Source: Verrucomicrobiota bacterium (lineage in GTDB: Bacteria > Verrucomicrobiota > Verrucomicrobiia > Limisphaerales > UBA11320). From it: a stretch of DNA of 52,082 bases. The stretch covers positions 1 through 52,082 of the forward strand of contig VHDG01000001.1 in the NCBI GenBank assembly GCA_016871475.1, read 5' to 3'. The translations under genes and the position numbers were made by a program. The notes beneath the pieces are model-generated. The model searched no databases. It worked only from the letters and a program-made list of their open reading frames with translations, and was not told the DNA's origin. Below, one piece after another: positions 3,570 through 29,535 of the stretch (position 1 is the first letter of the stretch; each line of letters starts with the position of its first letter).

Positions 3570-6500
3570 CTAGTCGATGTAACTGAACTCATTCAGATTC
3601 AAGAGCGACAGACAAAACTTCGTCAGCGCGGCGGCTTGCTCTTTGGGCAAGCGTTTCAACGCGTCGGGCATGGAGCCGGTTTCCTTGGTAACGTCGGCGG
3701 TCTTCGTGAAGGCATCGATCATTTCCAGGGATTCGCTTTTCTCGGTGGGGGTCGGAGCGCGCCCCAGCGCCCAGCGCCAGGCGCGGTCGATCCACGCCAC
3801 CGGGTCCAAGGCAATCGTTCGCTCGACGCGAAGCGCCTTGCCTATCACGCCACCGCCATGGGCGAGCGACTCGCAGTACTGCCAGCCCGCTGGCGTTGGA
3901 TTCGCAGCAAGAGAAAACGCCGCGGCCAAGTCGTTTGTCTGAGTGGCCGACGTAATGGTGAAATTCACTCCGACGAAGTCGCCTTGGAGGATTTCCAGGC
4001 GAAACGAGTCACCGGGGGCGCACGGGATCGCTTCCAACGCCTCCGCGCCCGCGCGCCCGCGCGCGAACCCGAACGGCCTGGACGAAGTTCCCGACGCGTC
4101 GTCGATGCCGGCTTCGGTGAGCAGATCACGGTCGTTCTTCCACAGCTTCCAACTTCCGCCACGGCCCAACTGGCGAATGTTCCACACGCCGCCCGTGATC
4201 TTCACGGGGCCGCCTGAATAGTCTGGTGGCGCCTTCCAGAGCACGCTCGACATGCCGTGCGTGATAACCGTCCCGATCGGATCGTCGAAGCTCGGCGTCG
4301 AGTGACCGTTGTCGACGCGCTTGGCCCAGCCGGCGTGGACGCCGGACGCTTTGCCTTCCCAGCCGGTCTGGCCGGGGCCGAAGTCCGGCTCGTTCCAGCC
4401 TTGACCCGGTTTGCCGACGAGCCGGGCGGCGAATTCGCGCGCCTGTTGGCCGGCGACTTTGTTGTTCATGAACCACAACGCTTGCGGCGCAACCGTCGTC
4501 ACGTCCCGGGCGGCGGCGCTCACAGAGTTGACCGGCAGATCGAAGACATCGAAGAGCGGGAATCGAAAGTTGCGGCGCGTCAAGATGTACAGACCGCGGC
4601 GCGTGTGATCTTTCGGATCGGCGGACACGATCCAGTTGCCTGACGGCATCTCGTCGCCCGTGAGCGGCGGCGCAACGGGCCGTCCGCCCAACGCAAGGTT
4701 CAGCGTGCCGGCCACGGCGTGCAGGTTGTCCCAGATCGTTTCGGCTTCGAGGCGCCGGCGATTCGCGCGCCAGAGCAGGCGGTTCTCGGGATCAGCGCGC
4801 AAATTCGCCTCATGCGCGAAGCGGCTGTCCATTTGATAGGCGCTCGACCGCAGGATCAGCCGATGCAACGTCTTCAGGCTCCAGCCTTGCGTCATGAACT
4901 CGACGGCCAGCCAATCGAGCAGTTCCGGGTGCGAAGGCAGCTCGCCCATCTTGCCAAAATCGTTCAGGGTCGCGACGATCCCGCGCTCGAAATGCCAGTG
5001 CCAGACGCGATTCACCATCACTCGGGCCGTGAGTGGATGATTCGTCTTCGTAAGCCACAGCGCGAGCTGCTTACGGCTGCCGAACGGGCCGGGTAACGCG
5101 CCCTCCCACCGACTGTTCTCTTTCAGCACTGCAGGTAAATCTGCGCCCACCGGATCACGCGCGCGCTTGATCTCGCCGCGATTCAAGATGTGAATGACCG
5201 GCACCAGCTCGGGTCGTTCGTGGCCCAGGACGCTGACGGTCGGGATTTCCATCAAGCCGTCGAACGGGCCGTCGTGCGCCGTGGACTCGGGCATGGATAG
5301 GACCGCGTTGGCGATGCCTTCGAGCAGACGCTGTTTCTTCTGCTTCTCTTCGGGTGTGAGCTCGCGGTCTCTCGTGTGCGCTTCAAAGAGGCGATACGCC
5401 TTGCGCGCTTCACTGGCGGCGATGACGCGTGGGTAATGCTGCTTGAAGTCCGCAATGCCCATCGCCGGAATGATCGGCGCCTCGACTTCGCGGCTGCCGG
5501 CGAAGACCGCTTGCAGAGCGAAGTAATCACGCTGCGTGAAGGGATCGAACTTGTGATCGTGACAGCGCGCGCAGCCGAAGGTTAGCCCCATGAAGGCGCT
5601 GGCGGTCGTATCGACCCAGTCCGTGAGCCTTTCGTAAGCAAGCTTGGGCGCGTCCATGTTCGACTCATGCACTTGCGGACCGAGCGTGTAAAAGCCCGTG
5701 GCGACGCGGGCCTCGAAGTGCCGCTTCTTGGCCTCGGGCAGTTGATACGAACCGTCGAGATCGAGGTTGTCCGGCCACAGCTCGTCGCCGGCAATCTGTT
5801 CCTGGACGAACCGATCATACGGCTTGTCGTCGTTGAACGAGTTCACGACGTAATCGCGATAGCGCCACGCGTTGCGGTAATAGATATCGGTCTCGTATCC
5901 GCCGCTGTCGGCGTAGCGCGCGACATCGAGCCAGTGCCGGCCCCAACGTTCGCCGTAATGTTTGGAGGCGAGCAGCGAATCGATCAGCTTCGGCCATGCT
6001 TCCGGCGACGCATCGTTGACAAAGGCCTCGACCTGCTCCGGTGTCGGCGGCAGACCAAGCAAATCAAAGTACGCGCGGCGAACCAGCGTGCGTCGATCCG
6101 CGCGCGGGGCGTGCGACAACCCTTTTTCCTCCAGTTTCGCGAGAACAAAGGCATCGATCGGCGTCGTGACCCACTTTGAAGCTTTGACGGCGGGAACCGC
6201 CGGGCGTCGCGGCGGGACCAACGACCAAAACCGTTTCGCTTCCTCCGTGATGGGCGAACTAGTTAAAACGGCGGCGTCCCCGCGTCGCGGATCCGGGGCT
6301 CCCATCTTCACCCAGGCCTCGAAATCGGCGATCTGCTGTTCGGTGAGCTTTCCGCCGTTTTTCCTGGGCGGCATTCGCAGGTCTTCGTCCGTGTAGCGAA
6401 TGGCTTTGATGAGCAGGCTTTGCTCGGGTGAACCGGGCACAAGCGCCGTGCCCGAATCGCCGCCTTTCATCCAGCCGTCGCGCGAGTCGAGCCGCAGGGC

Positions 6501-6674
6501 GGCCTTGAGGCTCTTGGCTTCGGCGCTGTGACATTCGTAACAGCGCTCGATGAGGACCGGACGGATCCGATTCTCGAAGAAGTCCAAATTCTCGCGCGTG
6601 GGTTCGGCCGCGCCAGCGCAAGCCAGGGAAGCAATCCCCACCCAAAGCAGTACGAGGTTTTCGCGTCTGTTCAT
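3570..6674 (-). CDS. PSCyt1 (c-type haem CxxCH) + DUF1549 (PSCyt2) + DUF1553 (PSD1) protein carrying an inserted A-module, pair 1
   Basis: 1034 aa. Signal peptide [27 protein letters not shown] at nt 6528-6542. DUF1549 block [24 protein letters not shown] and DUF1553 block [14 protein letters not shown] ~195-aa insert lies between FAARLVGK and [12 protein letters not shown]; the two paralogs in this window have only 8-9 aa at that position. Confidence 0.92.
3831..4400 (-). repeat. A-module, circularly permuted copy inserted in the DUF1553 domain
   Basis: It starts [70 protein letters not shown] and ends with [27 protein letters not shown]. In every other copy that last segment is N-terminal. 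Confidence 0.8.
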
Positions 6675-6758: not shown

Positions 6759-9700
6759 CTACCGGCGAATCAAGCGGTAAAACTTCGCCGCCATTGTTGG
6801 AGGAACCACGTGTGGATTGTTCGCGTTGGCCGAGTCGCTCCACGCTCCGGTCACAGCGTCCGCTTCTTGCAGCGTCCCGGCACCGGTCCACGAGATTTCG
6901 ACATTGGTTCCGGCGACTCGGATGGCCACGGTCAGCGGCGGATCAGGCGTGTAGGTCGCGATGCTGAATTGCACCGACACGAAGTCGCCTTGGAGAATCT
7001 CGAGCCGGAACGAATCACCCGCCGAGTAAGGGAGGTCCAGCAACGCCGCCGCGCCGCCGCTGCCGGAGTTCAAGCCCTTGGGCGACGTCGAGGTGCCGGA
7101 GCTGTCATTGATTGTGCCTTCGGACAACAGATTCGTTTCGTTCCCCCACAGCCGCCATAGTCCGCTGCGCCCGAATTGGCGGATGTTCCAGAATCCGCCG
7201 GCCAGACACGCGACGCCGCCGGGATCGTTCGGAGGCGCCGTCCACAACACACTGGTCGGCCCGTGCGTCAACACGCTGCCGATCGGGTCATCGTAGTTGG
7301 GAGTGGCGTTGCCGTTGTCGATGCGCTTGGCCCAACCCGCATGAGCGCCCGCGCGCGCGCCGACCCAGCCGGTCTGGCCCGCCCCGAAGTCGGGCTGGTT
7401 CCAATTCTCAACGGCCGCGCCCACAGGCCCGCCGCCGTTGCCGAGCGATTCGCTGTATTGCCAGCCGGTCGCCGTTGGATTCGCGTCGAGAGCAAAGTCA
7501 GCGACCAAGTCATGAACCTTTCTCGTTGTGAGCGCGAAGTCCACGGCGACAAAATCGCCGGCCAGAATCTCGAGGCGGAACGTATCGCCCGCCCCGTAGG
7601 CAATGCCGCGCAGCGCACTTTCACCGCCGCTGCCCGTCGCAAAACTCTTGGGCGCAGCGGAAGTGCCTTGCGAATCGTCGATTATGCCTTCGCTGATCAA
7701 GATCGTGTCGTTGTGCCACAACCGCCACGTGCCGGAGCGACCGAAGTGGCGGATATTCCACAAACCGCCGCTGATGTCGGCCACCCCGCCGCGATCATTG
7801 GCCGGGGCCTTCCAGAGAACGCTGGTGGCTCCGTGCGTCAGGATCGTGCCGGGCGGATCGTCGTAGCTCGGCGTTGCGTTGCCGTTGTCCACTCGCCGGG
7901 CCCAACCCGCATGAGCGCCCGCGCGCGCGCCGACCCAGCCGGGCTGGTTCGCGCCGAAGTCCGGCTGATTCCAGTTTTGAACCACAGGACCGACCGGCCC
8001 GCCGCCATTGCCGAGCGACTCGCTGTATTGCCAGCCATCGCTCGTCGGATTCGCGTCGAGTTTGAAGTCGGCCGCGAGGCTGTGCCGCGTGCCTTTGATG
8101 GCCGGCGGCGGCGCCTTCACGGTGAGCGTGGCCTCGTCGCTCAGCACGACGCCGACGGCATTGCTGACCACGGCGCGGTACTGGCCCGCTTGCGCGAAGG
8201 AGACACCCGTGAGCGTCAGGGTGGAACTCGTCTGGCCCGGCAAATCCGCGCCTTTAAATTGCCATTGAAAGCTGATCGGGGACGTGCCGAGGGCTCGGAT
8301 GCTGAACGTCGCGTCGCCGCCGGCGATCACCGTTTGATCGTCGGGATGGCGCGAAACGATCGGATCAGCCGGCACGGGATACGTGCTGATCCGCAGTCTC
8401 ACGCCCACGAAATCTTCTTCCAGCACTTCCAGCCGAAACGTATCGCCGGCTCGGTAACGAATGCCCCGCAACCCTCCCGGGCCACTGTCGCCTGCCGCCA
8501 GATTCAACGGATTGCCGGACGCGCCGGAATCGTCGTTGATCGCGCCGCTGGTGATCAGGATCGTGTCGTTCTTCCACAGCCGCCACGTGCCGCTGCGATT
8601 CAAGCGGCGCAAATTCCATAACCCGCCACTGAGGTCGGCCAGGCCGCCGGGGTCGTTGCCGGGCGCGCGCCACAGCAAGCTGGTTCTGCCGTGGGTCATG
8701 ATCGTGCCTTCCGGATCGTCCAGCGGAGGCGTGGGATTGCCGTTGTCAACGCGCCGCGCCCAACCGGCGTGCGCGCCCGGCGGAGACGCACCTTGCCAGC
8801 CGGGTTGACCGCCGCCGAAGTCCGGCTGATTCCAGTTTGGCGTGACGGGACCCACGATGCCGCCGCCGTCCGCCAGCGCGCGGCTGTACTGCCAGCCAGT
8901 CGAAGTGGGATTCGCCTCGAGGCTGAAATCGGCGCTGGCATCGTGCAGTTGCCGGGTGATGATAGTCATGTTGAGGGCGACGAAATCGTTCACGCCGACG
9001 CTTGCGACTTCGAAGCGAAAGGAATCTCCCGCCTGGTAAGGAATGTTGCGCAACGCATTCGGGCCGCTCGAGCCGTTCGCAAAATTCAGGGGCGAGCGTG
9101 AATCGCCGGAATTGTCATCGACCACTCCGTCGGTCAGGAGCTCCGTGTCATTTTTTAAGATGCGCCAGTTACTCGGCCGGTTGAGATGGCGGATGTTCCA
9201 AAGACTGCCGCGGATGTCCGCGACGCCGCCGCGGTCATCCGGGGGCGCCGTCCACATCACGCTGGTCGGCCCGTGCGTAATGATCGACCCGACCGGGTCG
9301 TCATACGTGGGCGTCGGACTGCCGTTATCGATGCGCTTGGCCCAACCCGCGTGGGCGCCGGCGCGCACGCCGACCCAACCCGGTTGGCTGGGGCCGAAGT
9401 CCGGTTGATTCCAATTCGGAACCACATTTCCGACCGGCCCGCCGCCGTTGGCGATCGATTCACTGTATTGCCAGCCGGTCGCCGTCGGATTCGCGTCGAG
9501 GCTGAAGTCGGCTGACAAATCATGACGCGCGCCGCTGACTGAGTCGGGCCGGGGCGTGACTTGAAGGTTCGCCGGCAGGCTCGTGCGCGAGCCGTTTCCG
9601 TTGCTCACCTGCACCGTGTAGGTGCCCGAGCGCTCGAACGCCACGTCGTTCAGCGCGAGCGACGCCCCGGTTTCACCGGCGATCTCGACGCCTTCGTAAA

Positions 9701-11390
9701 ACCACTGGTAGCTGAACGGCGCGGCGCCCACGGCGGCGACGGTGAACGTCACGTCGTCGCCTTCGTTGACCTTTTGGCTGAACGGATGCGTGGCGATCGC
9801 GGGATCGGGGCCTGTCGTCGAAGTAGTGATCGTAAACTGCACGCCCTGCAAATCGCCGTACGGCCCCATCAAACTTCCCCCGGGGCCGGACAATGGCAGA
9901 ATCTCCAACCGAAACGAATCTCCCGGTGAATAAGGAACTCCCGCTAATTCCATCGCCGTGGGCGCTCGGTCAAAACTGTTCGGCGTGTCGGACGAACCGC
10001 GGCTCACCACTTGTTCAGCCAGCAGGAACATGTCGTTTTTCCAAATGCGGTACTTCTGTCCGCGAGCGTTGCGTTCGATCGACCAGATTCCTCCGCTGAT
10101 CGTCGCGAACCGGTCCGTCTCACCGGCTGCGGCGGTCCACTTGACGCTGGAAGTTCCGTGCGTCATCACGGCGCCGAAAGGCGCGTCGAGGTTCGGCAAG
10201 TCCTTCGCGTTGTCGATGCGTTTGGCCCAGCCGATGAACGGCGTCGCCGGAATGCCCAGCCAGCCGGGTTGATTCGCGCCGAAAACGCTTTCGACCCAGT
10301 TAAACGAGACCGGTCCCACCACCCCGCCGCCCGCGTCGAGAGCTTGCGAGTATTGCCAGCCGCGCGAGGTGGGATTGGCCTGGAGCGTGAAGTCGTTGGT
10401 CAAGTCATGCACGCTCGGCGTCACCGGCCCCGGCGCATCGATCACCAACACGCCCGCCCGACTCGTCCGGCTCCCACCCGGACTCGTGACGACAACACGG
10501 TAGCTGCCTCCGTCGGCTGGACTGACCGACGCAATGGAGTGCGACGGGCCCGTCGCCCCCGGGACATCCACGCCATTCTGTTGCCATTGGTAGGTGAGCG
10601 GCGCCGACCCGGACGCCGTGGCCGAGAAAGTGACCGCGCTGCCCGCGACCACAAGCTGGCTTTGCGGATGGGCTGAGATAAACGGATCCGTGGTCGCCGT
10701 GGTCGTGATCGTGAAACGAACCGCAACGAAATCGTTCTGTAGAATTTCGAGCCGAAAGAAATCGCCCGGGTGATACGGAATGTCCCGCAAATCGGCGCTG
10801 CCACCGCTGCCGGACTCCAGGCTCAACGGCTGATCAGAAGTGCCGGTGAGATCGTCGATCGTGCCTTGTGACAGCACCGAGTCGTTCTTTAAAAGTCGCC
10901 ACGTGCCGCTGCGATTGAAGTGGCGAATATTCCAAAGCCCGCCGCTGATCGTTGCGAACCGATCGGTGTCGCCGGGCGGCGATTTCCACAGAACGCTGGT
11001 GTTGCCGTGCGTCAGGATCGTCCCGACGGGGTCGTCGTAGGTGGGCGTGTCATTGCCGTTGTCGATGCGCAAGGCCCAGCCCGCGTGCGCCCCGGAGCGC
11101 ATCCCGAGCCAACCTGGCTGCCCCGGCCCGAAATCGGGCGCGTTCCAATTGTCCCCGCGCGCGCCGACTGGTCCGCCGCCATTGGCGACCGACTCGCTGT
11201 ACTGCCAGCCGCCGGACGTCGGGTTGGCGTCGAGACTGAAATCGGCGGCCACGTCATGCACCGCCCCTGGGAGGTGCAGCGGTGAGAAAATGTTCGCCAA
11301 TAGTCCGGCTAGGACGGCCGCCATTGCTCTCGGGATTATTGCTTTCGATTGCGTCTTCATAATTAATATGTGGTTTTCTGAGTTATTCAC
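6759..11390 (-). CDS. Secreted repeat protein: 6 A-modules + 3 Ig-like domains + C-terminal FYRL domain
   Basis: 1543 aa. Hydrophobic N-terminus; an alternative start MKTQSK lies at 11360. Architecture is A-Ig-A-Ig-A-A-Ig-A-A-Cterm. The Ig-like domains carry the PLxYQW..G.Y.V.VSN pattern. It ends ..AAKFYRLIRR. Confidence 0.9.
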   Translation of the reverse strand: MNNSENHILIMKTQSKAIIPRAMAAVLAGLLANIFSPLHLPGAVHDVAADFSLDANPTSGGWQYSESVANGGGPVGARGDNWNAPDFGPGQPGWLGMRSGAHAGWALRIDNGNDTPTYDDPVGTILTHGNTSVLWKSPPGDTDRFATISGGLWNIRHFNRSGTWRLLKNDSVLSQGTIDDLTGTSDQPLSLESGSGGSADLRDIPYHPGDFFRLEILQNDFVAVRFTITTTATTDPFISAHPQSQLVVAGSAVTFSATASGSAPLTYQWQQNGVDVPGATGPSHSIASVSPADGGSYRVVVTSPGGSRTSRAGVLVIDAPGPVTPSVHDLTNDFTLQANPTSRGWQYSQALDAGGGVVGPVSFNWVESVFGANQPGWLGIPATPFIGWAKRIDNAKDLPNLDAPFGAVMTHGTSSVKWTAAAGETDRFATISGGIWSIERNARGQKYRIWKNDMFLLAEQVVSRGSSDTPNSFDRAPTAMELAGVPYSPGDSFRLEILPLSGPGGSLMGPYGDLQGVQFTITTSTTGPDPAIATHPFSQKVNEGDDVTFTVAAVGAAPFSYQWFYEGVEIAGETGASLALNDVAFERSGTYTVQVSNGNGSRTSLPANLQVTPRPDSVSGARHDLSADFSLDANPTATGWQYSESIANGGGPVGNVVPNWNQPDFGPSQPGWVGVRAGAHAGWAKRIDNGSPTPTYDDPVGSIITHGPTSVMWTAPPDDRGGVADIRGSLWNIRHLNRPSNWRILKNDTELLTDGVVDDNSGDSRSPLNFANGSSGPNALRNIPYQAGDSFRFEVASVGVNDFVALNMTIITRQLHDASADFSLEANPTSTGWQYSRALADGGGIVGPVTPNWNQPDFGGGQPGWQGASPPGAHAGWARRVDNGNPTPPLDDPEGTIMTHGRTSLLWRAPGNDPGGLADLSGGLWNLRRLNRSGTWRLWKNDTILITSGAINDDSGASGNPLNLAAGDSGPGGLRGIRYRAGDTFRLEVLEEDFVGVRLRISTYPVPADPIVSRHPDDQTVIAGGDATFSIRALGTSPISFQWQFKGADLPGQTSSTLTLTGVSFAQAGQYRAVVSNAVGVVLSDEATLTVKAPPPAIKGTRHSLAADFKLDANPTSDGWQYSESLGNGGGPVGPVVQNWNQPDFGANQPGWVGARAGAHAGWARRVDNGNATPSYDDPPGTILTHGATSVLWKAPANDRGGVADISGGLWNIRHFGRSGTWRLWHNDTILISEGIIDDSQGTSAAPKSFATGSGGESALRGIAYGAGDTFRLEILAGDFVAVDFALTTRKVHDLVADFALDANPTATGWQYSESLGNGGGPVGAAVENWNQPDFGAGQTGWVGARAGAHAGWAKRIDNGNATPNYDDPIGSVLTHGPTSVLWTAPPNDPGGVACLAGGFWNIRQFGRSGLWRLWGNETNLLSEGTINDSSGTSTSPKGLNSGSGGAAALLDLPYSAGDSFRLEILQGDFVSVQFSIATYTPDPPLTVAIRVAGTNVEISWTGAGTLQEADAVTGAWSDSANANNPHVVPPTMAAKFYRLIRR
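6954..7520 (-). repeat. A-module copy M6 (aa 1291-1479), directly abutting M5
   Basis: [100 protein letters not shown]. Confidence 0.85.
7524..8090 (-). repeat. A-module copy M5 (aa 1101-1289)
   Basis: DFKLDANPTSDGWQYSES..NWNQPDFGANQPGW..HAGWARRVDNGNATPSYDDPPG..THG..GGLWNIRHFGRSGTWRLWHND..GDTFRLEILAGDFVAVDFALTT. Confidence 0.85.
8382..8951 (-). repeat. A-module copy M4 (aa 814-1003), directly abutting M3
   Basis: DFSLEANPTSTGWQYSRA..NWNQPDFGGGQPGW..HAGWARRVDNGNPTP..THG..GGLWNLRRLNRSGTWRLWKND..GDTFRLEVLEEDFVGVRLRIST. Confidence 0.85.
8955..9527 (-). repeat. A-module copy M3 (aa 622-812)
   Basis: DFSLDANPTATGWQYSES..NWNQPDFGPSQPGW..HAGWAKRIDNGSPTPTYDDPVG..THG..GSLWNIRHLNRPSNWRILKND..GDSFRFEV. 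Confidence 0.85.
9822..10412 (-). repeat. A-module copy M2 (aa 327-523), the most divergent copy in this protein
   Basis: [80 protein letters not shown], plus an extra ~10-aa loop. Confidence 0.8.
10701..11261 (-). repeat. A-module copy M1 (aa 44-230)
   Basis: DFSLDANPTSGGWQYSES..NWNAPDFGPGQPGW..HAGWALRIDNGNDTPTYDDPVG..THG..GGLWNIRHFNRSGTWRLLKND..GDFFRLEILQNDFVAVRFTITT. Confidence 0.85.
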
Positions 11391-11473: not shown

Positions 11474-14400
11474 TTAACGCTCTCTGAGCCGGAAGAAGCG
11501 AGTGGGACCGCTCAGGCTCTGTCCAACGTGGATCTCATTGCCCACTTGCGTTTGGGGTCCGCTCGCTCCGATCCAAGGGCCCTGGATGGCCGTGGCCGCT
11601 TCGAGAATGTGATTCGTGAACGGGGCGGCCCAACTCAGTTGGAGCGATAGCCCCTGCGCCCGCGCGATCAGCCTCGGACGCGGAACAACGGTGAACGTCG
11701 CCTCGGCAAGATCAGTCCAGTTTCCGTTCGCGAGCGTCTGGCCCACGGGAAGGATGGCGGCGGCCCTCAGTATTCCGGCCTGCTGAATGGAAATCGGTTC
11801 GGTGTAAAGTTGTCGACTCAGCGAAAGTCGCGGGTCAGAGCCGTCCAACGTGACGTAAGCGAGCCAGCCGGGTTGCGTGGTGAGGCTCACCGTGGTCCCC
11901 GGCTGCACTTCGCCGTTCGCCAGCGAGAGCGCGGGCGTCTTGTCCGGAGACGGCAGGCCCGTCGAAGCGAGCGCGAGGAAGTTCGAGAGAGAGCGGCGTT
12001 GGCTCGTCAACACGTTAGTGGCTTCGTTAATGCTGGTGCGGATCGTACTCCAACGAGCCAGGTCCGCCGTGCGGTCTGGCGTCATGAGCGTGAACAGTTC
12101 CCGGATGCGCGGAATGATGACCTCGAGCTTCATGACGTCGCGAACCATCTTGCGCAGGGTGAGCAGATAGATGCGGCGCAAGGTGGGATTCGTCGAGACC
12201 CGTTGATACAGCTTGCCGCGTTGCCACGCCGGATTGTCGCCGCCGCCGCCGTCGCCGTAGAGGGCGCGGATTTGGCCCACGCGCCCGAAGGTGAACCCGG
12301 AATCGAAGTCGTAGCCGAGCATCTTCCACTTGCCGCCCGGCTCGCCGGGAAGAAACAGGTAGTAGTTGTGGCCGGTGAAGTCATCGATGTTCATGCACAC
12401 GTTGAGCGCCCAGCGCTTGAACCATTGGTCCAGGTCCACGTGCGCATCGAGCCACGGCAGCAACTGGGCATCGGACATGTCGTTCAGCGCATCGACCAGT
12501 TCGCGCAGCGAGTCCGGCGGCTCGAGAGGACGCACCTTCTTGTTATACGCGCCCCAATAGTCGTAATCCGTGACGATCTGATTGTGGAACAGGTCGGAGT
12601 TCTTCCACTGCGCGGGCGTTTCGACCGTTCGGCCTTTGTACACCTCGCCGCCTTCATGGTGGCCGTGCTTGCCCAGCCAGCGTCCGGTCGGGCTTTCGAA
12701 GCCGATGTACACGCCCCAGAACGAGCCGTTGATGTGCAAACGCACCAGTTCGTGTTGCAAGTTATCAATGCCCGCTGAGTCAAACAGCTCGAAGGCGATC
12801 TTCTGCTCCAGCGGAATCGAGTACATCGTGTCGTAGGTGCGGTTGGTCTTGTAGAGATGGTCCTTGTTGAATTGGAATTTCCACGGACGCTTCGGATCGT
12901 CGCGCGAACGGCGCCCGCGATACCGCGCGCCCACGTGCGGATAGGCGATGTGGTCGATCACCAGCGAGCAATCGACGTAGTCGTCCGAGCGCGGATTGGC
13001 ATTGAGCCTGTTCAGATTCGCCGTCGGGATGAACAGGTGAAACAGCGTGCTGCGCGTATTGATCTCGCCGTTATAGTGGAAATAAGCCTGCGTGGGCGAT
13101 GGGTCGTCTGCGTAAGGAAACTGTGTCGTCACGCCGCGCGTGTCGGTGGCCACGACCTGGTAATGCACGAGTGTTTGGGACGCCCTGGCAGGAACCCAAA
13201 CGCCGAAGACACCATCGTTCGCCACACCGTCGCCGTGCAGGCCATCATCGAACATCTCGAGCCACGTCTCGTTCGTCGCGGCGTTCATCATGGTCTTAAG
13301 CTGGACCGACTCAAGCGGCGCTTCGCCTTGGACGCGGGCGGTGACCAACACGTCGTTCGTCGAGGCGGGCTTATCGGGAAAGTGCGTTAAGCCATCGACC
13401 AACGGTGGCAATGGCTCGGCTCCCACCGAATTGAGCCGGCCCGGGGTGCCGCAGCCGATGAACCCGGCCACCGGCGGCGCGATGATGGGCGGCGCCACCG
13501 ATTCGCCAAACGCCAGCGAAATATCGTAGCCGACGTAATCGTCGGAGCGATTCGGCGCCAGCGGCGTTGCGCCGAATTTGAGGACATCACCGGCCACGAC
13601 GTTCACGATCAACGCGCTCGGCCCCTTGCTTCCCGTTTCGAATGACAGCGGTGAGCGCGAGTTGATGGTGAGGTTGGTGTTGAATAAATCGCCGGCGGTG
13701 ATTTCGGTGTTGTTGAGTTTGATGTACCAGTGCTGACTGCGTCCGATGCGGCGCAGGAGCCAAACACCGCCCGAGATGGTCACGCGTTGGCTGGAGGATG
13801 CGGTCCACCAAACTTCGGACGGACCGTACGACATGACCGAGCCTGTCGGGAAATCATACTCCGGACGTGGGGCGCCGGGCGCTTTCGACGAGCCGGTGCT
13901 TTTGCACCAGCCCGGAGTGCCGGTCGTGCCGCCAGCGGTCCACGCCGGCTGATTCGTGCCGAGATCGGCCGTGCGCCAGCGGGCAACGCGCGCGGTGATG
14001 ACCGTGCCGGTCCGATGCCGGTAACTCCATCCGTAGCTGGGGTTCAGCCAGTCGCTCCAGTCTTTCGCCAAGTTGTGAATTCCGCCGGAGGCCGCTATGA
14101 GCGGCGAGAACCCCGCTCCGGCAAATCCAATTGTAACCGCGTCGGCTCCCTTCTGAAAACTCGCGCGGCACGTGATCGTGTAACTCTGGCCGATCGTGAT
14201 ACCGGGGACGTTCGCCACACCGACGTAGTTGGACTCGCCATCGCCCGCACCTTGAGCAATCACCAGAAAACTCCCCCTGCCATCGAACGCTGCGTCGTCC
14301 GTTCGGCGTGACGTCGAATGGTTCCCGACCTTGGTCCAGCCGGAGTCGTCCGGCTCGAAGGAACCATTCGCCAGCAGGTTGGCGCCGCCGACTGCCGGAC

Positions 14401-15643
14401 GAACTTCCACTTGATCCACCAGCCATTCGCCTGCGCCGTTCAGCGCGACGAAGAGCTTGTCCGACATCGCGATGCCCGTCGCCGTGATCGTTTGCCACGC
14501 CACATGGGCTTGGGCCAATCTGCCGCGGCTGGCGCGCCAATTCGCCGCCGTGCTGTTATCCCTGTGAGGATTGATGCATTCGAGCGAGTAGCCGAATTCG
14601 TCCGGTCCAACCGGCCAGGGATGCCGGTCGTTGTAGCGCACCGTGTCCGCCACCCAGCCGAGCGCGTCGCGGAGCGTGAGTCGTTCGCCGCCGTCATCGA
14701 GTACGCCGACGAACGGCCCGACGACATTGGTGATGCCGAAGCGCAACGTTACCGCTTGCGGCACGGCCGCCACGACGAGATGCGCGCCCGCGGCCACCAC
14801 CGTGCCGGGCGGAAACGTGAACGCGATACCTTCAGTGAAAGCCCAGCCCGCGAGGTCCACCGGGTGCGTGCCGCGATTGAACAGCTCGACGTATTCGCCG
14901 AGTTCGTCGTCGCCCGCTTCGTAATATTGACCGGCATTCACGGCGTCGAACTTCTCGCGCAGCTCTTCGCGCTGAGGGAGGTACATGATTTCGTTGATGA
15001 CGATGGCGCTCCCACCGGGAACGCCGGGCTTGTTGGACACCCCGGGCGAATAGGGTTGCCCCACGCTCCAATTGGCCGGGGTATTGTTGTCAACGTCCGG
15101 CGAGATCAGTTCGAGGGACGCACCACCGCCATCGGCTTCACTGGGCCATGGAGCCGAGTCGTCGTACGAAACGAAATCGATCATTCGGCGAGGGCTGCCA
15201 TTGTCCTTGAGCCTGATCGTGTCGTCGCCATTGTCGAGGCGTCCGACGTAATTCCCCAAGATGTTCGTGACGCCGTAGAAAGCACCTGCTGCCGTGGCGT
15301 CGCGCGCAATGACCAGATACGCGCCGCCGAGCAAGATCGTTCCATCGGGAAACGCAAAATCCACACCGCCATCGACGATCCAGCCGGTCAAATCCACCGG
15401 CGTGCCGCCGCGGTTGTAGAGTTCAATGAACTCATCGCCGGTGTTGTTCGGGTCTTGGTGATACAGAATCTCGTTGATTACCACGTCGGTCGGTCCTGCG
15501 ATGAGCCGACTCCCTCCAAACGACATCAACATCAGGCAAACGACGGCAACGCCCTGAATGATAGAGCGAAGCCGAGCACATCGAGCGGTCGAGCGGACGC
15601 CCGCGCAACAATCGAGTGACAGGGGCAACAACTTCACGTTCAT
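11474..15643 (-). CDS. Secreted lamin-tail-domain (LTD x2) / CotH kinase-like protein containing a divergent A-module
   Basis: 1389 aa. LTD motifs VVINEILYHQDP..EFIELYNRG and IVINEIMYLP..YVELFNRG. CBM-like segment NLLANGSFEPDDSGW. CotH-type region YRGRRSRDDPKRPWKFQF..VRLHINGSFWGVYIGFE. CHB_HEX_C-like segment YVTLDGSDP..YTEPISI. It ends ..TRFFRLRER. Confidence 0.9.
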   Translation of the reverse strand: MNVKLLPLSLDCCAGVRSTARCARLRSIIQGVAVVCLMLMSFGGSRLIAGPTDVVINEILYHQDPNNTGDEFIELYNRGGTPVDLTGWIVDGGVDFAFPDGTILLGGAYLVIARDATAAGAFYGVTNILGNYVGRLDNGDDTIRLKDNGSPRRMIDFVSYDDSAPWPSEADGGGASLELISPDVDNNTPANWSVGQPYSPGVSNKPGVPGGSAIVINEIMYLPQREELREKFDAVNAGQYYEAGDDELGEYVELFNRGTHPVDLAGWAFTEGIAFTFPPGTVVAAGAHLVVAAVPQAVTLRFGITNVVGPFVGVLDDGGERLTLRDALGWVADTVRYNDRHPWPVGPDEFGYSLECINPHRDNSTAANWRASRGRLAQAHVAWQTITATGIAMSDKLFVALNGAGEWLVDQVEVRPAVGGANLLANGSFEPDDSGWTKVGNHSTSRRTDDAAFDGRGSFLVIAQGAGDGESNYVGVANVPGITIGQSYTITCRASFQKGADAVTIGFAGAGFSPLIAASGGIHNLAKDWSDWLNPSYGWSYRHRTGTVITARVARWRTADLGTNQPAWTAGGTTGTPGWCKSTGSSKAPGAPRPEYDFPTGSVMSYGPSEVWWTASSSQRVTISGGVWLLRRIGRSQHWYIKLNNTEITAGDLFNTNLTINSRSPLSFETGSKGPSALIVNVVAGDVLKFGATPLAPNRSDDYVGYDISLAFGESVAPPIIAPPVAGFIGCGTPGRLNSVGAEPLPPLVDGLTHFPDKPASTNDVLVTARVQGEAPLESVQLKTMMNAATNETWLEMFDDGLHGDGVANDGVFGVWVPARASQTLVHYQVVATDTRGVTTQFPYADDPSPTQAYFHYNGEINTRSTLFHLFIPTANLNRLNANPRSDDYVDCSLVIDHIAYPHVGARYRGRRSRDDPKRPWKFQFNKDHLYKTNRTYDTMYSIPLEQKIAFELFDSAGIDNLQHELVRLHINGSFWGVYIGFESPTGRWLGKHGHHEGGEVYKGRTVETPAQWKNSDLFHNQIVTDYDYWGAYNKKVRPLEPPDSLRELVDALNDMSDAQLLPWLDAHVDLDQWFKRWALNVCMNIDDFTGHNYYLFLPGEPGGKWKMLGYDFDSGFTFGRVGQIRALYGDGGGGDNPAWQRGKLYQRVSTNPTLRRIYLLTLRKMVRDVMKLEVIIPRIRELFTLMTPDRTADLARWSTIRTSINEATNVLTSQRRSLSNFLALASTGLPSPDKTPALSLANGEVQPGTTVSLTTQPGWLAYVTLDGSDPRLSLSRQLYTEPISIQQAGILRAAAILPVGQTLANGNWTDLAEATFTVVPRPRLIARAQGLSLQLSWAAPFTNHILEAATAIQGPWIGASGPQTQVGNEIHVGQSLSGPTRFFRLRER
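13508..14083 (-). repeat. Divergent A-module-like segment (aa 521-712 of the LTD-CotH protein)
   Basis: It keeps the order and spacing of the module landmarks: DWSDWLNPSYGWSY.., LGTNQPAW, TPGW, FPTGSVMSYGPSEVWWTA, ISGGVWLLRRIGRSQHWYIKLNN, and GDVLKF near the end. Confidence 0.5.
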
Positions 15644-24024: not shown

Positions 24025-27000
24025 TCAGGGATCGATCGCGAGGATTCGATAGAATCCAACGCCTTCGGAGGAGACCGGGAATACGAAGCGGAGACGGTCT
24101 CGAGTCGCTCTCTCAGCTCTCCCTTGTTCCTGCCAGGCCCCTTCGACAAGCCCACTTCGCACCTGGAGGGCGTAGGTCCGGCCGACGACGACTTCGCATT
24201 CCAAACTGAGATCGCGGTCCACCAGGGTCACGGTGACGATGCGGAGAGGGGGTTCCGGTGGAACCTCCGTTCCGTTGCTCCGCAGCGGGGAGGGGCTCTT
24301 GAAACGGGAGTACGGCGAGGGTGAAGCCTGAGGAAACCGGCCCTCGCTCTCATTCTCAGTCTGTTGTCCAAAGGTTACCGAATCGGACAGAGTACCGTCG
24401 GGCATAAAAAGTGCGATGATCTCCCCCGATTGTCCAAGCTTGAAGTTCACGTGTAAGTCGCGCTGTGCCTGATTGAGGGACGGACGATCGTCCGCCCAGA
24501 CGAGCAGATATCCGTCAGGCCCGATCTGCCTTCCTGGGGGGATGCGAAACTTTGCGGGCTCCTTCCAGTCATCCGTCAGCGTCCATCCCTCGAGAGAAAT
24601 CATTGTCCCCGAAGGGTTGTAGAGTTCGAACCAGTCAGAGAAGAGACCGCTTGCCGGATCGCGCAGGAAGTCTGTGTTTGCTGCCATCCATTCATTGATC
24701 ACGATGCGTGTCGCCGTCGGCAGCGGCTGGCGGAGAGTATTTGCGCGCCCGGGTGTGTACGGTGCGCCGTGGATCAAACCGCTCTGCAACGTCGCTCCGA
24801 AGACCACATCTGCACTGAAGGCATTCAGTTGATGCACCTCGACCGCCAACACGTTCTCCCCCGGACGAAGGCTGGCCGCTGGCACATCGAAGGGGCCTTC
24901 GATCGTCGCATCGTTGACGTTTCGCGTTGCGAACGTCATGGAGGAGACTTCCCCGGTAGGCATGCCGGAGCGGAACAGTTCCACGTTGTTGAGGTAAAAC
25001 ACCGCACCGTCGTCCACCAGAGTATACAGCCGGAGCGTTCCACCCGGACCGTAAGGTACGTCGTTTGTGATACGCGTTCGGAAATAGTAGGTGGTCGGCC
25101 CTAGCCGCAACGCCGTCCGCTTGGAGGCCGGCAACACTGCATTCTCCACAAAAAACAGCCCGGCGCCACTTGACCATGTCGAATCATCATAATCCTCCAA
25201 TCGCCAATCCTTCCTCAAATCACGCCCGGACTGATCGTAGCGCCAGACATTCGTGAAGCCCACGTAGGTGTAGGGTGCATTGGAAGGCTCTGGGGGCGCC
25301 GCAAACCAATTCCTGGGATGATCGTTATCTGACGCGACATCCATCAGCTGGAGGGAAGCCCGAGAGCCTTGGGGATTTGAAGGCCACGGCGCCGTTGTCC
25401 GATAGCTGACTTCATCCACCACAGCCGCCGGACTCTTTTGCGCCGGAGCCTGAACGAGCCGCAGCGTTTCGCCTTCCGGATCAAGCCGTCCCAAAAAGTA
25501 CCCCACGGGAGGGACAAAGTCAGGGTACGCTTCCCTGAAGCTTCCCGGACTGGACGCGATGACGACGAAACTGTTGGGGTGTAACAGGCTCCCCGCGGGG
25601 AAGACGAAGTCCACGCCCTCGAGTCGCCAGTCGGAAAGATCAAAGGCAGTGCTGGGTGAAGCGTTGAAGAGTTCCAGGAACTCGGCGCCCGGCAGCGGGG
25701 CTCGAGGTTGGATCTCGTTGATCACTACCGTGCGTTCGGCTCGATCGCTCGTGCCGGTGAACCTCACGCCCACCGCCAATTCGTTTGAGCCCACGAGTAG
25801 ACCCCATCGGTCGAGCCCGGCGATGCGTAGGTCGTTTGTCCCCGGGTGGAGCGGGACGGTCATCTCCCAAGCGATGGGCGTGGTCCAACGCGTCGGATAA
25901 GGCCGCCCATTGGCGAGCACTGTCTTGATGTGCACCGGGGCCGTGCCCCGAAGAATCACGAGATTTCGGTTCGTTTCGTAACCCGCAGCCGGAGGAGCGA
26001 GCAGTCGAAACTGAGACGTGTCCTCCAGGGCCACAGCGGTTCGAATGAAGTTCCGCCTCGCCTCCATCCAGGTCCTCAAAGGGGCGAGTGACCCCACGGG
26101 GACGGCATTCCCAGTCAACGCCGTTTCCAAGTCGCGGACACGACTCTCAAAAGCCGCCGAGGAATAAGGACCCTGAATGGCTTCTTTCAACGCCCGCAAA
26201 TAAGCGCGTCGAAAGGGCGGATGCTGATACATGCGGCCAATCGTCGGATCATTGACCGCATACAAGGAATCACTGGTGGAGGGGTTGTAGCTGCCAAGCC
26301 CATGGTCGAGATCCGTGACAATCATTTGCCAACGGCCATCCGTCGGCTTGTAGGCAAACATGTTCTTGCCACGTCCGTAGCCATACCCATCGCTGTCCTC
26401 GGTGATGTGGCGAATCGCGAACGCACGCATCCACTCCTCGACATCCACCAACGACTCGACCCTGGCGGTGTAGAGATCGGCGTTCCTTTCGTTCAACGCG
26501 TCGACAAGGCGGAAAATCTCCCGATAGTCGTCATCCCAACCGCCATTCGCTTTCTTCTCCCAGTTCCACCGATAACGAGCCTGCGCCTTCGTGCCTCCAA
26601 AAGCCGTGAAGGGCTCCAGGGTTGCGTTCACCCAGGATTCAATGATTCCCGAATCACTGAACTCAAACCAGTCATCAATCTTGAAGAGATCACCCCGGTC
26701 GTCCTCGGGAAACCAAGCCTTAATGAAATCCGTATTAGGTTGTTGCGTCTCTGCGCAGACGATCCCACGACGCGTTCCGTTGACCCAGAAATTCACGTAA
26801 CGTTTGTGGCTAAACGGAATGTCGAATCGATCGGCGAGATAGAACGACAGTTCTTCCCGAAGGAGGGTTGGATCCTTGCTATAGAGTTCCGGGGGGTCCA
26901 AGTAGAGCTCGTCCACTCCGAGGATGGGGTCGTCCTTGGGAGTCTCGAGGTTGAACGCGCAGAGATTCCTCGTGGGTCCGTTGTAGCCCGGTCGACTATA

Positions 27001-29475
27001 GGGACTCCCATGATAGCGGGCGCCCACGCCGTAAACGATCCGGGAATCCTGATAGATGAGGGTGCCATCCAGGAACTGGTTACTCAACGGAGGTCGGCGT
27101 TCCCATTCCTGGCGAACCGAGTCGGTCAGCCATAAACGGTAAACTCCAAACGATTGGGTCGAAACCGGGTCGCCGAACCTGACCACGCACTCGCGACCCG
27201 GCGCGTGGGCCGGGAAGACGCTCAGTTTGGACTCCCGGAAGCCGTCGCGCGCTTCGATGTAGAACGCCACGATCCCACCCCGTGGCTGGCCAGGCAGGCG
27301 CGCCGAGAACACACGATCGCCCGCATGGCGGTCACCGGCCATGGCATCATCTCGCATGACCACGGCATGCCACTCCATCGCCGGATCGATGCGATACCTC
27401 AGCAGCGGGTTCCCCTGTAGACCATCGACATCTTCCACGCTTGCGAAAACGGTCACCGTTTCGTCGGGAGCGGGAACCACGGGTTCGTGCCTCACGTCGA
27501 AGATCGCTGGACCGACATTGGGCTGAAACTGGCTGTTGGTCCGTCCGGGAGTTCCTAGATTCCTGGGCACAGGAAGTTGGGCGGAGAGTTCCAGCGGGTT
27601 GCCGCGAATTCGAATGAGGAGCAGGGGGGTACCACGAAGCCAGCGCGCTCTCGCCCGGATCACACCGGTTTGGCCGTTTGCCAATCGACCCGTCAGGTCT
27701 GTCTCCACGTTGTTCCCGCCCGTATCTCCACCCCCGGAACTTGAAACTCGATAAGCGCGTCCTCCGAAACCCAATGCCCCTTCGTAAACGCCGGAGGCGG
27801 AGTGATTGCCTGTGGCAACCCATCCCGCAGTATCCGTCTCGAAATCGGAACCGCGGACCAGATTCGGTTCCCCCAGCCTCGAAACCACCAAGTCGTCGAT
27901 GAGACATTCTCCTTTGCCGAGCTGTACCAACTGAAGCTCATCGTAAACGGCGGCTCCCAGCTCGAGAATCCCGACTCGCTCCAACTGGGTCCAAGTCCCC
28001 TTGCCCGTCTCGTCGCTGTCCGCCCAGTGGCCCGCTCGCTGATTGCTGCCGCGTGGATCCATCAGTTCCAAGCTGCTTCCGCCCCCATCTGCCCAGCGAC
28101 CCCACTGGCCCCCTTCGCCCCATTCAAACTCATTCACCACCTTTTCGATCGTGACCTGTTGTGAAATCCCTGTCGGCCCCGTTCGCGAAAAGGTCCTTGG
28201 CCTTATCAGCCGAACCTGCGGAAAGCCACGCCGTAAACTCCCCGAGAAACCTCCGACCACTTGCGAAGGGTCGATTCCCTGATAGTTCTCAAGGATCCGT
28301 TCGCGATTCTTCGCCACCACGACCATTCCGCCTGGGGACAGTTTCGAGCCGGAAGGAAACGTAAACCGGATCGTCCCTTCGAGGCGCCAGGCATCGAGAG
28401 ACACGGTGTCAGTTCCTCGGTTGAGCAGCTCAAGATACTCATCATCATCGTCGCCCGAGATCGGATGATACATCACCTCGTTGATAACGACGTCCTCAAC
28501 GACATGTGGACTGTTCCGCTGTCCAGGGGTGGGCGATACCGAGAATCCCAGTGGACCCACTCCATCCGGGAACCGACTGAGCGTGTCCGCAACATCCCCC
28601 AGTTCAACACGCACTGCGTCCTCAATCCTGGTTCGCTCGCGATTCTCCAGGAGCACGAGCGTTCTCGAGGTCGTTCCGGGAAGACCATGAAACGCTCGGA
28701 ATCCACCCGGGGGGATGACAGGTTGGGGAGCGATCTGATAGGGCGGCGAGTGTGGATCGATGAGGATCCAATAGCCCGTGGGATCGATGGCGGATTCCGA
28801 GCGATTCCAGACCTCGACGAAACGGGATGCGGGGTCAGGGTGATGAAGGCAGAGTTCGTTCAGCACGAGGGTTGCCTCATTCTCTGGCGCGGCTCGTTCG
28901 ATCACACCCGGGGTTCCCCCGATGAGTGAGCTCGCTTTCCAAGCCCGAGGGTTTCTTTCCCCCTGCGACGGGAAGGCAAGCACCAAGCTGGCGCCACCAC
29001 CCCCTGCGGCCGCGGGCCATGGGTGTCGGGATTGATACGGAATCTCAAGCAAACGGGCTCCGCTCCGATGCCGCAGTTCGAGAGTTCCGGAGCCGTCAGG
29101 CAGGTCCGTCTCGACACCTCCGAAAACCGTCGCGAGACCGTAAGCGTCCTTAAGACTCTGAGGGTGCGCGGCAACCACAAGAACGGCCCCGGGGGCCATC
29201 ACCGTGTTCGGAGGAAACCGATATTCCCAATCGCCAGTCAGCCGGAACCCGGACAGGTCCTCCGGGATCGGGCTTGAATTGTATATCTCAACGAATTCGA
29301 GGTTCCGCCCCGACGCTGCGCCGGACGGAGCGTACATCACCTCCGTTATAACGATGCCGGTTCTCCGGGAAGAAGGTCCGAGAGGCTCGCTCGCTTCCAG
29401 AGCCTCCCCTCCTGGCATAACAATCAACAGGACTGCTGCTACCCATCCCCGCTTGACGCGGTTCGCCCGCTGCAT
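24025..29475 (-). CDS. Giant secreted LTD (about 5 copies) / CotH kinase-like protein with C-terminal FYRI domain
   Basis: 1816 aa from the ATG at 29473-29475 (MQRANRVKRGWVAAVLLIV); an alternative ATG lies at 29499. LTD motifs: IVITEVMYAP..FVEIYN, LVLNELC..FVEVWN, VVINEVMYHP..YLELLN, VVINEIQP..FLELFN, IVINEWMA..WFELYN. CotH-type region GARYHGSPYSRPGY..NFWVNGTRRGIVCAE. It ends ..GVGFYRILAIDP. Confidence 0.88.
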   Translation of the reverse strand: MQRANRVKRGWVAAVLLIVMPGGEALEASEPLGPSSRRTGIVITEVMYAPSGAASGRNLEFVEIYNSSPIPEDLSGFRLTGDWEYRFPPNTVMAPGAVLVVAAHPQSLKDAYGLATVFGGVETDLPDGSGTLELRHRSGARLLEIPYQSRHPWPAAAGGGGASLVLAFPSQGERNPRAWKASSLIGGTPGVIERAAPENEATLVLNELCLHHPDPASRFVEVWNRSESAIDPTGYWILIDPHSPPYQIAPQPVIPPGGFRAFHGLPGTTSRTLVLLENRERTRIEDAVRVELGDVADTLSRFPDGVGPLGFSVSPTPGQRNSPHVVEDVVINEVMYHPISGDDDDEYLELLNRGTDTVSLDAWRLEGTIRFTFPSGSKLSPGGMVVVAKNRERILENYQGIDPSQVVGGFSGSLRRGFPQVRLIRPRTFSRTGPTGISQQVTIEKVVNEFEWGEGGQWGRWADGGGSSLELMDPRGSNQRAGHWADSDETGKGTWTQLERVGILELGAAVYDELQLVQLGKGECLIDDLVVSRLGEPNLVRGSDFETDTAGWVATGNHSASGVYEGALGFGGRAYRVSSSGGGDTGGNNVETDLTGRLANGQTGVIRARARWLRGTPLLLIRIRGNPLELSAQLPVPRNLGTPGRTNSQFQPNVGPAIFDVRHEPVVPAPDETVTVFASVEDVDGLQGNPLLRYRIDPAMEWHAVVMRDDAMAGDRHAGDRVFSARLPGQPRGGIVAFYIEARDGFRESKLSVFPAHAPGRECVVRFGDPVSTQSFGVYRLWLTDSVRQEWERRPPLSNQFLDGTLIYQDSRIVYGVGARYHGSPYSRPGYNGPTRNLCAFNLETPKDDPILGVDELYLDPPELYSKDPTLLREELSFYLADRFDIPFSHKRYVNFWVNGTRRGIVCAETQQPNTDFIKAWFPEDDRGDLFKIDDWFEFSDSGIIESWVNATLEPFTAFGGTKAQARYRWNWEKKANGGWDDDYREIFRLVDALNERNADLYTARVESLVDVEEWMRAFAIRHITEDSDGYGYGRGKNMFAYKPTDGRWQMIVTDLDHGLGSYNPSTSDSLYAVNDPTIGRMYQHPPFRRAYLRALKEAIQGPYSSAAFESRVRDLETALTGNAVPVGSLAPLRTWMEARRNFIRTAVALEDTSQFRLLAPPAAGYETNRNLVILRGTAPVHIKTVLANGRPYPTRWTTPIAWEMTVPLHPGTNDLRIAGLDRWGLLVGSNELAVGVRFTGTSDRAERTVVINEIQPRAPLPGAEFLELFNASPSTAFDLSDWRLEGVDFVFPAGSLLHPNSFVVIASSPGSFREAYPDFVPPVGYFLGRLDPEGETLRLVQAPAQKSPAAVVDEVSYRTTAPWPSNPQGSRASLQLMDVASDNDHPRNWFAAPPEPSNAPYTYVGFTNVWRYDQSGRDLRKDWRLEDYDDSTWSSGAGLFFVENAVLPASKRTALRLGPTTYYFRTRITNDVPYGPGGTLRLYTLVDDGAVFYLNNVELFRSGMPTGEVSSMTFATRNVNDATIEGPFDVPAASLRPGENVLAVEVHQLNAFSADVVFGATLQSGLIHGAPYTPGRANTLRQPLPTATRIVINEWMAANTDFLRDPASGLFSDWFELYNPSGTMISLEGWTLTDDWKEPAKFRIPPGRQIGPDGYLLVWADDRPSLNQAQRDLHVNFKLGQSGEIIALFMPDGTLSDSVTFGQQTENESEGRFPQASPSPYSRFKSPSPLRSNGTEVPPEPPLRIVTVTLVDRDLSLECEVVVGRTYALQVRSGLVEGAWQEQGRAERATRDRLRFVFPVSSEGVGFYRILAIDP

Positions 29476-29535
29476 GAATATTCTTAGCCCAAAGTGCATC
29501 TGACCATTCCGGATGCTTTTGATTGCCAAAAATAC

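Follow-up and report, generated by a model that had tools for sequence, protein, structure and literature searches.

Here, we present an analysis of a segment of about 190 residues within protein E, the 1389-residue lamin tail domain (LTD)-CotH product of the frame 11474-15643 on the reverse strand of a 52,082-nt stretch of DNA from a Verrucomicrobiota bacterium (contig VHDG01000001.1); we refer to this whole stretch as the window. The first-pass annotation of this DNA described the segment as a divergent copy of a module found in a neighboring protein. We found that the segment is homologous to these modules (A modules), but the direction implied by that description is reversed: the copy embedded in the CotH protein has the general form of a large and uncurated family of surface domains, while the HAGW and DNG motifs of the neighboring copies appear to be derived. 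What is new here is that a sub-lineage of this family, for which a jelly-roll fold is predicted, occurs as an accessory cassette in one apparently exported CotH kinase-like protein. We consider it probable, at roughly 0.6, that the module is a noncatalytic ligand-binding domain that targets the CotH domain to a polymer or surface and holds it there, and that its ligand is a glycan.

The A modules comprise eight canonical copies, six in a 1543-residue protein (6759-11390) and two in the protein encoded at 33280-37269; a rearranged copy is located at the end of the PSCyt/PSD1 protein (3570-6674). All eleven module matches in the assembly (G000; 4.88 Mb, 81.6% complete) lie inside the window. A hidden Markov model (HMM) built from the eight canonical modules, with the CotH segment left out, matches the segment with 84.5 bits (E = 1.2e-26) over HMM positions 4-188 of 193, corresponding to residues 522-709 with an envelope of 519-712. 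In the reverse direction, a profile of the CotH-type segments alone recovers the canonical modules in the genome at E values of 2e-31 to 5e-23. The segment is 29-35% identical to the canonical copies. With matches far beyond chance, the segment is homologous to the A modules, as the first-pass annotation had proposed from the order of landmarks. These landmarks (YGWSY, NQPAW, TPGW, FPTGSVMSYGPSEVWWTA, ISGGVWLLRRIGRSQHWYIKLNN, SRSPLSF, and GDVLKF) were all found upon translation of 13508-14083 on the reverse strand, and the domain envelope (13508-14089) extends six bases beyond these coordinates. HAGW, THG, and DNG are indeed all absent from the segment; the two DNG in protein E (residues 137 and 147) are located in the first LTD. 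The described position between a carbohydrate-binding module (CBM)-like region and the CotH region was also borne out: a weak CBM_4_9 match (residues about 421-500) precedes the segment, while an Ig-like domain with a choice-of-anchor X motif (residues 795-821) and the CotH domain (residues 907-1212) follow it.

To describe the family as a whole, we aligned 192 domains to the family profile, i.e., 8 A modules, 12 CotH-type modules, and 172 other members. The family consensus is DL..DWSD..NP-NG.W.Y ... QPAW ... P.W.K ... D.P.G.V..HG...V.WTSP ... ISG..W..R..GR...W.L..N ... P ... GSGG ... GD ... DFVGV, and the segment follows it in DWSD, NPSYGWSY, QPAW, and TPGW. The first family motif is present in its consensus form (DWSD..NP...WSY) in DWSDWLNPSYGWSY (residues 528-541; 14021-14062, reverse strand). 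All family core residues (N-P, W, Q..W, W, D, H, W, W, R, R, W, N, and G-D) are found in the segment except for the His at column 88. The His of HAGW occurs in 31 of the 172 other members (whole motif in 17) and the Asp of DNG in 29 (whole motif in 20); on these counts, both motifs appear to be special features of the A subfamily. Four positions are fixed differently in the two subfamilies, and at each of them (W of DWSD, S of WSY, A of QPAW, and P of xPGW) the CotH-type modules have the family consensus; the reverse was never seen. At the level of motifs, the CotH-type thus seems to keep the general family form, with HAGW and DNG of the A-type as the derived state. We claim this polarity at the motif level only: against a profile of 148 other family members, the segment scores 170 bits and the A modules of the window score 130-203 bits, i.e., overall closeness to the consensus is alike in both subfamilies, and both look equally typical overall. 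Judged by its sequence, the segment is an ordinary member of the family and not a decayed A module. The polarity bears on future curation of the family (e.g., as a Pfam or CAZy entry) and on the choice of residues to mutate.

Column 88, the H of THG, is His in 8 of 8 A modules, in 8 of 12 CotH-type modules, and in 146 of 172 others; the window copy has Tyr606 (codon at 13826-13828, reverse strand) and P0005 has Asn. Because the His is present family-wide and is kept in two-thirds of the CotH-type modules, with Tyr in the window copy only, Tyr606 appears to be a lineage-specific substitution. Elsewhere in the family, Tyr occupies this column in 7 of the 172 others, and Tyr, Asn, or Phe replaces the His in ~9% of them without other decay. 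The suggestion in the first-pass annotation that HAGW, THG, and DNG had been lost and mark dispensable positions therefore did not hold, since HAGW and DNG are peculiar to the A subfamily and the THG His is retained by most CotH-type modules. Further polar columns are near-invariant, with the Asp of column 79 in 160 of the 172 others, the Arg of column 116 in 140, the Arg of column 120 in 156, the Asn of column 129 in 143, and the Asp of column 171 in 159. In protein E, the invariant polar residues kept by the family include N534, Q565, D597, R631, R635, N644, and D686.

The two subfamilies share the predicted fold, the strand order, and core motifs (NP..W.Y, QPxW, D.P.G, W, GG.W..R..GR..W...N, S..P, GD, and DFVG). 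They differ in that the A-type modules of the three neighboring proteins have HAGW, DNG, a GNGGG loop, and an NDxGG loop and occur in tandem arrays, while the CotH-type has DWSD, QPAW, xPGW, a STGSSxxxGAPHPEYDFP loop, and a PLAPN insertion ahead of the last strand and is found as one copy within a kinase-like protein. The loop KSTGSSKAPGAPRPEYDFPTG (residues 581-601; 13841-13903, reverse strand) lies where the A-type modules have the loop RIDNGNxTPxYDDPxG and is four residues longer; it is evident in the alignments and in the structural models. Because this loop is near-invariant among the CotH-type orthologues and variable across the family, it is a likely candidate for a specificity loop.

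In a tree of the match columns (FastTree, LG+gamma, midpoint root, domain matches covering at least 150 profile positions), the ten core CotH-type modules form one clade with a support of 0.96; with P0013, P0053, P0029 (two modules), and P0068 included, the support is 0.94. A larger clade of 29 tips (0.97) contains this one as well as the modules of glycoside hydrolase (GH) 116, GH123 plus dockerin, pectate-lyase-like, and LamG proteins and that of P0100. The A modules are placed elsewhere, in a clade separate from the CotH-type. The adjacent A modules are at a patristic distance of 2.5-3.05 substitutions per site from the segment, compared with 2.64 for the median family member and 1.7-2.0 for the nearest nonorthologues. 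On this tree, the segment represents a separate and old sub-lineage of the family, which we refer to as CotH-type.

A region-restricted search with the whole of protein E identified ten orthologous proteins of 1237-1406 residues with LTD, CotH, and CHB_HEX_C domains, in which the segment is 36-70% identical (39-74% over the domain envelope); P0053 was added as an eleventh from the search of cluster representatives described below. The proposed link between the module and CotH was thereby substantiated by about 11 orthologues of identical architecture. Among the nine closer orthologues, identity is 50-74% in the module (70-74% to the close ones), 65-76% in CotH, and 43-57% in the CBM-like region; in P0009 and P0012, the CBM-like region is missing and the module is kept. 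The module appears to be conserved among orthologues about as strongly as the kinase domain and selectively maintained. A second architecture is present in P0100 (1942 residues; LTD-CotH-CHB_HEX_C-module-LTD-PKD), in which the module (residues 1051-1230) follows the kinase domain, which implies that the module was either fused a second time, independently, or rearranged. CotH-type modules are rare, with occurrences in 2 of the 401 genomes sampled from the phylum (this one included), at 3 loci across 185,579 species genomes, and at 3 loci in metagenomes.

Comparison to paralogues indicates how the module is placed in protein E. The genome has 53 Pfam CotH matches, each above the cut-off and spread over about 55 open frames, most of which encode 1000-2300 residues with LTDs and varying LamG or Ig accessory domains (e.g., C429:3277-4257, C194:1060-1986, C73:7784-8764, and window 12008-12925 and 26113-26877). 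This is an unusually large expansion for apparently exported kinase-like proteins. In BLAST comparisons of protein E with eleven paralogues, the LTD block (residues about 42-373) and the Ig-CotH block (residues about 725-1217) align, and in K (window 24025-30513), C99, and C170 the LTD-block alignment reaches through the CBM-like region to residues 474-509; residues 510-720 of protein E are aligned in none of the eleven. The gap between the two blocks is 14 residues in K and 24 in C99, compared with about 221-231 in protein E. Because the blocks of the paralogues nearly abut where protein E carries residues 510-720, the module appears from these alignments to be an inserted cassette of about 220 residues that occupies a fixed junction between the CBM-like region and Ig-CotH. 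Other paralogues have LamG or Ig-set domains, and in C215 and C73 LamG is N-terminal to CotH, which suggests that the accessory slot ahead of CotH is interchangeable. LamG (Laminin_G_3), a lectin-like beta-sandwich, has a comparable accessory role in these paralogous proteins; however, it belongs to a different fold family and has no sequence relationship to the module, and interchangeability of the slot does not make the functions equal. The presence of the module in protein E is ordinary domain shuffling and provides a clean natural example of a domain cassette at a fixed junction in a family of CotH kinase-like proteins that has expanded hugely and whose members are apparently exported.

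The CotH domain of protein E (residues 907-1212; 12008-12925, reverse strand) matches Pfam PF08757 with 108.1 bits (cut-off 23.8; E = 8.3e-31) and was matched at the same place in the whole-genome scan. It also aligns with Bacillus cereus CotH (PDB 5jd9; E = 8e-7), and the Asp residues aligned to D224 and D247/D249 of this protein are kept in NIDDFTGHNYYLF (12353-12391), with the motif NIDDF, and in LGYDFDSGF (12293-12319), with the motif YDFD. D228 and D251 are essential in Bacillus subtilis CotH (PMC7821199), and with a numbering offset of +4, the Asp residues of protein E would be the equivalents of these two. Because the Asp residues aligned to 5jd9 D224 and D247/D249 are retained, the CotH domain of protein E is presumably active. 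Bacillus CotH (5jd9/5jda) differs from protein E in that it is a 42-kDa single-domain protein that the mother cell produces for assembly into the spore coat, while protein E is a 1389-residue, multidomain, and apparently exported protein of a nonsporulating Verrucomicrobia metagenome-assembled genome (MAG) with >50 CotH paralogues.

AlphaFold2 gave confident models of the segment (predicted local distance difference test [pLDDT] 95.8, predicted template modeling score [pTM] 0.91) and of the A module M5 (pLDDT 95.4, pTM 0.91). The DSSP strings of the two models have 13 strands and 2 short helices in identical order and give the same state at 172 of the 184 aligned positions; four loop indels account for the differences. 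Using Foldseek, both models retrieved overlapping PDB neighbors, i.e., CBM6 (8j3x, 2cdo, and 2cdp), CBM35 (2w1w, 2w47, 4qb1, and 4qb2), CBM51 (2vmg), CBM36 (1ux7), and others, followed by Cry toxin domain III and C1q/TNF jelly-rolls. These models weakly suggest that the module has a beta-jelly-roll fold of the binding-module type, without a close solved relative. The best structural neighbors, which are galactose-binding-domain-like, are accessory noncatalytic beta-sandwiches on secreted enzymes, and relatives of the module similarly accompany GH116, GH123, and pectate-lyase-like beta-helices. The two differ as follows: the module has no sequence similarity to these CBMs and is outside PF03422 and PF16990 (no Pfam match at E 10), it has ~190 residues compared with ~130, with extra N-terminal strands and long loops, and its host is a kinase-like protein, while theirs are glycoside hydrolases. 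Carbohydrate binding and a Ca2+ site are traits of the CBMs, and the likeness of the module to them is one of predicted fold.

The module family extends far beyond CotH proteins. A profile of the nine window copies was searched against 1.84 billion sequences, and among the representatives of clusters at 50% identity, 596 matched at E ≤ 1e-3 and 293 at E ≤ 1e-10. Among the 149 listed representatives out of these 596, 75 have ≤350 residues, 122 have one module copy, 34 have a PEP-CTERM-like C-terminal signal, and 8 have the tail [RK][FY][FY]R[LIVA]. For these proteins, source names and precomputed Pfam matches gave PF07589 (PEP-CTERM) alone and none on the module domain itself. In larger members, the module stands beside GH116, GH123 plus dockerin, pectate-lyase-like beta-helix, LamG, PKD, He_PIG, FG-GAP, or CarboxypepD_reg. 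Single-domain PEP-CTERM surface proteins (P0045, P0163, and P0172, the last a "PEP-CTERM sorting domain-containing protein" of a Planctomycetes MAG) have the same domain as the segment of protein E, and their consensus, DL..DWSD..NPNG.WSY ... QPAW ... P.W.K ... HG ... GDFVGVNLTI, is the form followed by the CotH-type segment. These proteins comprise a signal peptide, a single module, and a PEP-CTERM anchor, with no enzyme, while protein E lacks PEP-CTERM and ends in an RFFRL tail. We also considered ZepA, which groups zinc-handling PEP-CTERM exoproteins with a H-x2-9-H-[FY]-H zinc motif and a two-domain architecture of an Ig-like domain and a small sheet (PMC10957091). Compared by this published motif, the module family is not ZepA, because the motif is missing from the segment and from the family consensus.

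According to the model that we favor, the module would bind a surface or environmental glycan and, together with the neighboring CBM-like domain, would keep the catalytic CotH domain in place on its target polymer or surface, with the loop of residues 581-601 as the likely specificity determinant. The fold class and the partner domains make the proposal of the first-pass annotation, i.e., a binding scaffold and not a His/Asp active site, plausible. If the module is indeed a targeting domain, its ligand would point to the substrate of one such kinase. Several observations weigh against this model. The likeness to CBMs is weak, with Foldseek E values of 1e-4 to 1e-2 and query-normalized TM scores of 0.25-0.43 (for the CBM6, CBM35, and CBM36 matches, probability 0.96-1.0 and E values of 2e-4 to 1e-2); at this level, Foldseek weakly supports the jelly-roll class and nothing finer, and this class includes the nonglycan binders C1q/TNF and Cry toxin domain III. 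No match to the segment or to M5 was found in Pfam and NCBIfam with thresholds loosened to E 10 and E 1, and PDB sequence searches with three family profiles gave no match to any CBM but a borderline one to 5cd6_A. The agreement in fold between the segment and M5 is partly built in, as both models were made from the same 40-sequence alignment. The invariant polar residues D597, His/Tyr606, R631, R635, N644, and D686 could equally mark a metal or catalytic site. Finally, the gene neighborhood is conserved in one close relative only and gives no operon-level hint to function.

Could the module simply be an inert structural spacer that provides length or rigidity between the N-terminal domains and CotH, as Ig or FN3 repeats do, without a ligand of its own? 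The family does occur in tandem arrays of as many as six copies with Ig I-set domains in between, reminiscent of the stalk repeats of adhesins, and paralogues with directly joined blocks function without the module. However, a spacer would not be expected to match the catalytic domain in conservation and to surpass the CBM-like region, to have a subfamily-specific and near-invariant loop at residues 581-601, or to keep many invariant Trp, Arg, Asn, and Asp residues across 190 domains. Moreover, in the many single-domain PEP-CTERM members, the module is the whole mature protein and, therefore, must act by itself. We consider a purely structural role unlikely. The near-invariant polar residues (columns 79, 88, 116, 120, 129, and 171) instead raise the idea of a small enzyme or metal-binding domain based on the family-wide Asp, His, Arg, and Asn, of which the copy in protein E, with Tyr for His, would be an inactivated relic; replacement of the His in protein E and in P0005 would be in line with such inactivation. 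Yet the nearest structural neighbors are all noncatalytic binding modules, and the module occurs in six tandem copies as well as beside true catalytic domains (GH116, GH123, and CotH). The His is also replaced in other members without further decay, the copy in protein E is still constrained, as judged from its identity to the close orthologues, and the zinc motif of ZepA is absent. Altogether, these observations make a catalytic or metal-binding function highly improbable.

A different type of binding would be protein-protein docking, in which the module pairs with the A-type modules of the six-module and PSCyt/PSD1 proteins to form a surface complex of the products of three adjacent genes. 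In favor of docking, each of these three consecutive same-strand genes encodes a family member, every module copy of the genome is inside the window, and the three-gene order of LTD-CotH, six-module protein, and PSCyt/PSD1 protein recurs at the locus L001, the only one to share it. By contrast, the orthologues at L003 and L005 have unrelated neighbors (pilin-like, two-component, S-adenosylmethionine-cycle, and symporter genes) and no other module within the examined DNA (up to 10 kb on each side), and no second module is present on the examined DNA of L002 and L004. The genome of L002 (G062) has one other family member only, a 274-residue frame on another contig. In addition, the A modules are no nearer to the CotH-type than other family members are, and most family members are lone domains. 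Docking thus appears very unlikely to us. Returning to the glycan-binding model, we can extend it, if speculatively, to the paralogues: the >50 secreted LTD-CotH proteins would constitute an extracellular kinase toolkit, in which the choice of substrate is made via interchangeable lectin-like cassettes (the module, CBM4_9-like, and LamG), and the module-bearing enzyme would phosphorylate the specific surface or environmental glycan or glycoprotein that its module recognizes. We regard this extension as improbable as it stands; if true, it would provide a bacterial counterpart of the glycan kinases of the secretory pathway related to Fam20.

The remaining features of protein E, all on the reverse strand, are consistent with a secreted protein of the layout LTD-LTD-CBM-like-module-Ig-CotH-CHB_HEX_C (11474-15643; Pfam LTD 1.3e-36). 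The N-terminal 50 residues (15494-15643) contain a signal-like hydrophobic stretch (IIQGVAVVCLMLMSF...LIAG), read from the sequence as a putative signal peptide, and a hydrophobic N-terminus ahead of VVINEILYHP is common to all orthologues. The conserved hydrophobic N-terminus and the C-terminal RFFRL tail suggest that protein E is exported. The first LTD (PF00932) covers residues 51-160 (15164-15493), and a second LTD stretch in Pfam covers residues about 211-375 (14519-15013; jackhmmer envelope 211-375). The CBM_4_9-like beta-sandwich (14144-14383) is a weak match to PF02018 (E = 0.0019, 19 bits, below the cut-off of 25.9); the orthologue P0013 has a precomputed PF02018 match. Neither Pfam nor NCBIfam places a domain in residues 505-790. 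Downstream of the module (residues 519-712; 13508-14089), the choice-of-anchor X motif (13181-13261; NCBIfam NF041940, 3.7e-10) lies inside the Ig-like domain that precedes CotH. CotH is followed by a CHB_HEX_C_1/Fn3_assoc Ig-like domain (residues 1242-1297; 11753-11920; Pfam, 1e-7) and a C-terminal domain of ~80 residues that ends in RFFRLRER (11477-11713), a type of tail used genome-wide. The public gene call for protein E (P0003, 1336 residues) has its start 53 codons further downstream than the ATG at 15643 (window 15485-15643) and, thereby, removes the hydrophobic segment that all orthologues retain; the longer start at 15643 is more likely to be correct.

The C-terminal tail [RK][FY][FY]R[LIVA] occurs within the last 12 residues of 52 open reading frames genome-wide, compared with one or two expected by chance on a rough estimate, and in 7 of 30 CotH proteins with a true C-terminus; in the window, it is found at 11477-11500, 6762-6790, and 37240-37266. 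From its distribution, the tail looks like a lineage-specific sorting signal in place of PEP-CTERM. The large CotH expansion and this genome-wide tail are more unusual than the insertion of the module itself.

Additional observations concern individual relatives and loci. L001 (CAMAVD010000143.1, 750-12841) is on a MAG contig labeled Akkermansia muciniphila; its CotH-type segment is 74% identical to that of protein E and its PSCyt/PSD1 protein also has a rearranged module. Given its planctomycete-type gene set, the species label looks doubtful. In the GH116 proteins P0088 and P0106, the module matches are located upstream of the GH116 N-terminal domain and start at about profile position 36-38, as does that of the PSCyt/PSD1 protein. 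The borderline PDB match, 5cd6_A ("TPR-domain containing protein"), aligns at residues about 171-244 with residues about 575-635 of the module (E values of 0.058, 0.14, and 0.9) and shares the motif AP..YDFP.G.V.SH...W.T...G..W; 5cd6_A, which is outside the top 50 Foldseek matches, may be a distant solved relative, and we keep it as a lead and not as evidence. The "B variant" module (33487-34044, in the protein encoded at 33280-37269) matches the CotH-type profile in hhalign with a probability of 94.5% (E = 8e-8) in its C-terminal half only, which supports that it is a distant member of the same family. Lastly, the genome has two matches to VTC (PF09359), G000:C56:8507-9100, with the CotH context C56:347-1369, and G000:C472:2421-3107; of the two, the one interrupted by an internal TGA shares its contig with a CotH gene about 7 kb away.

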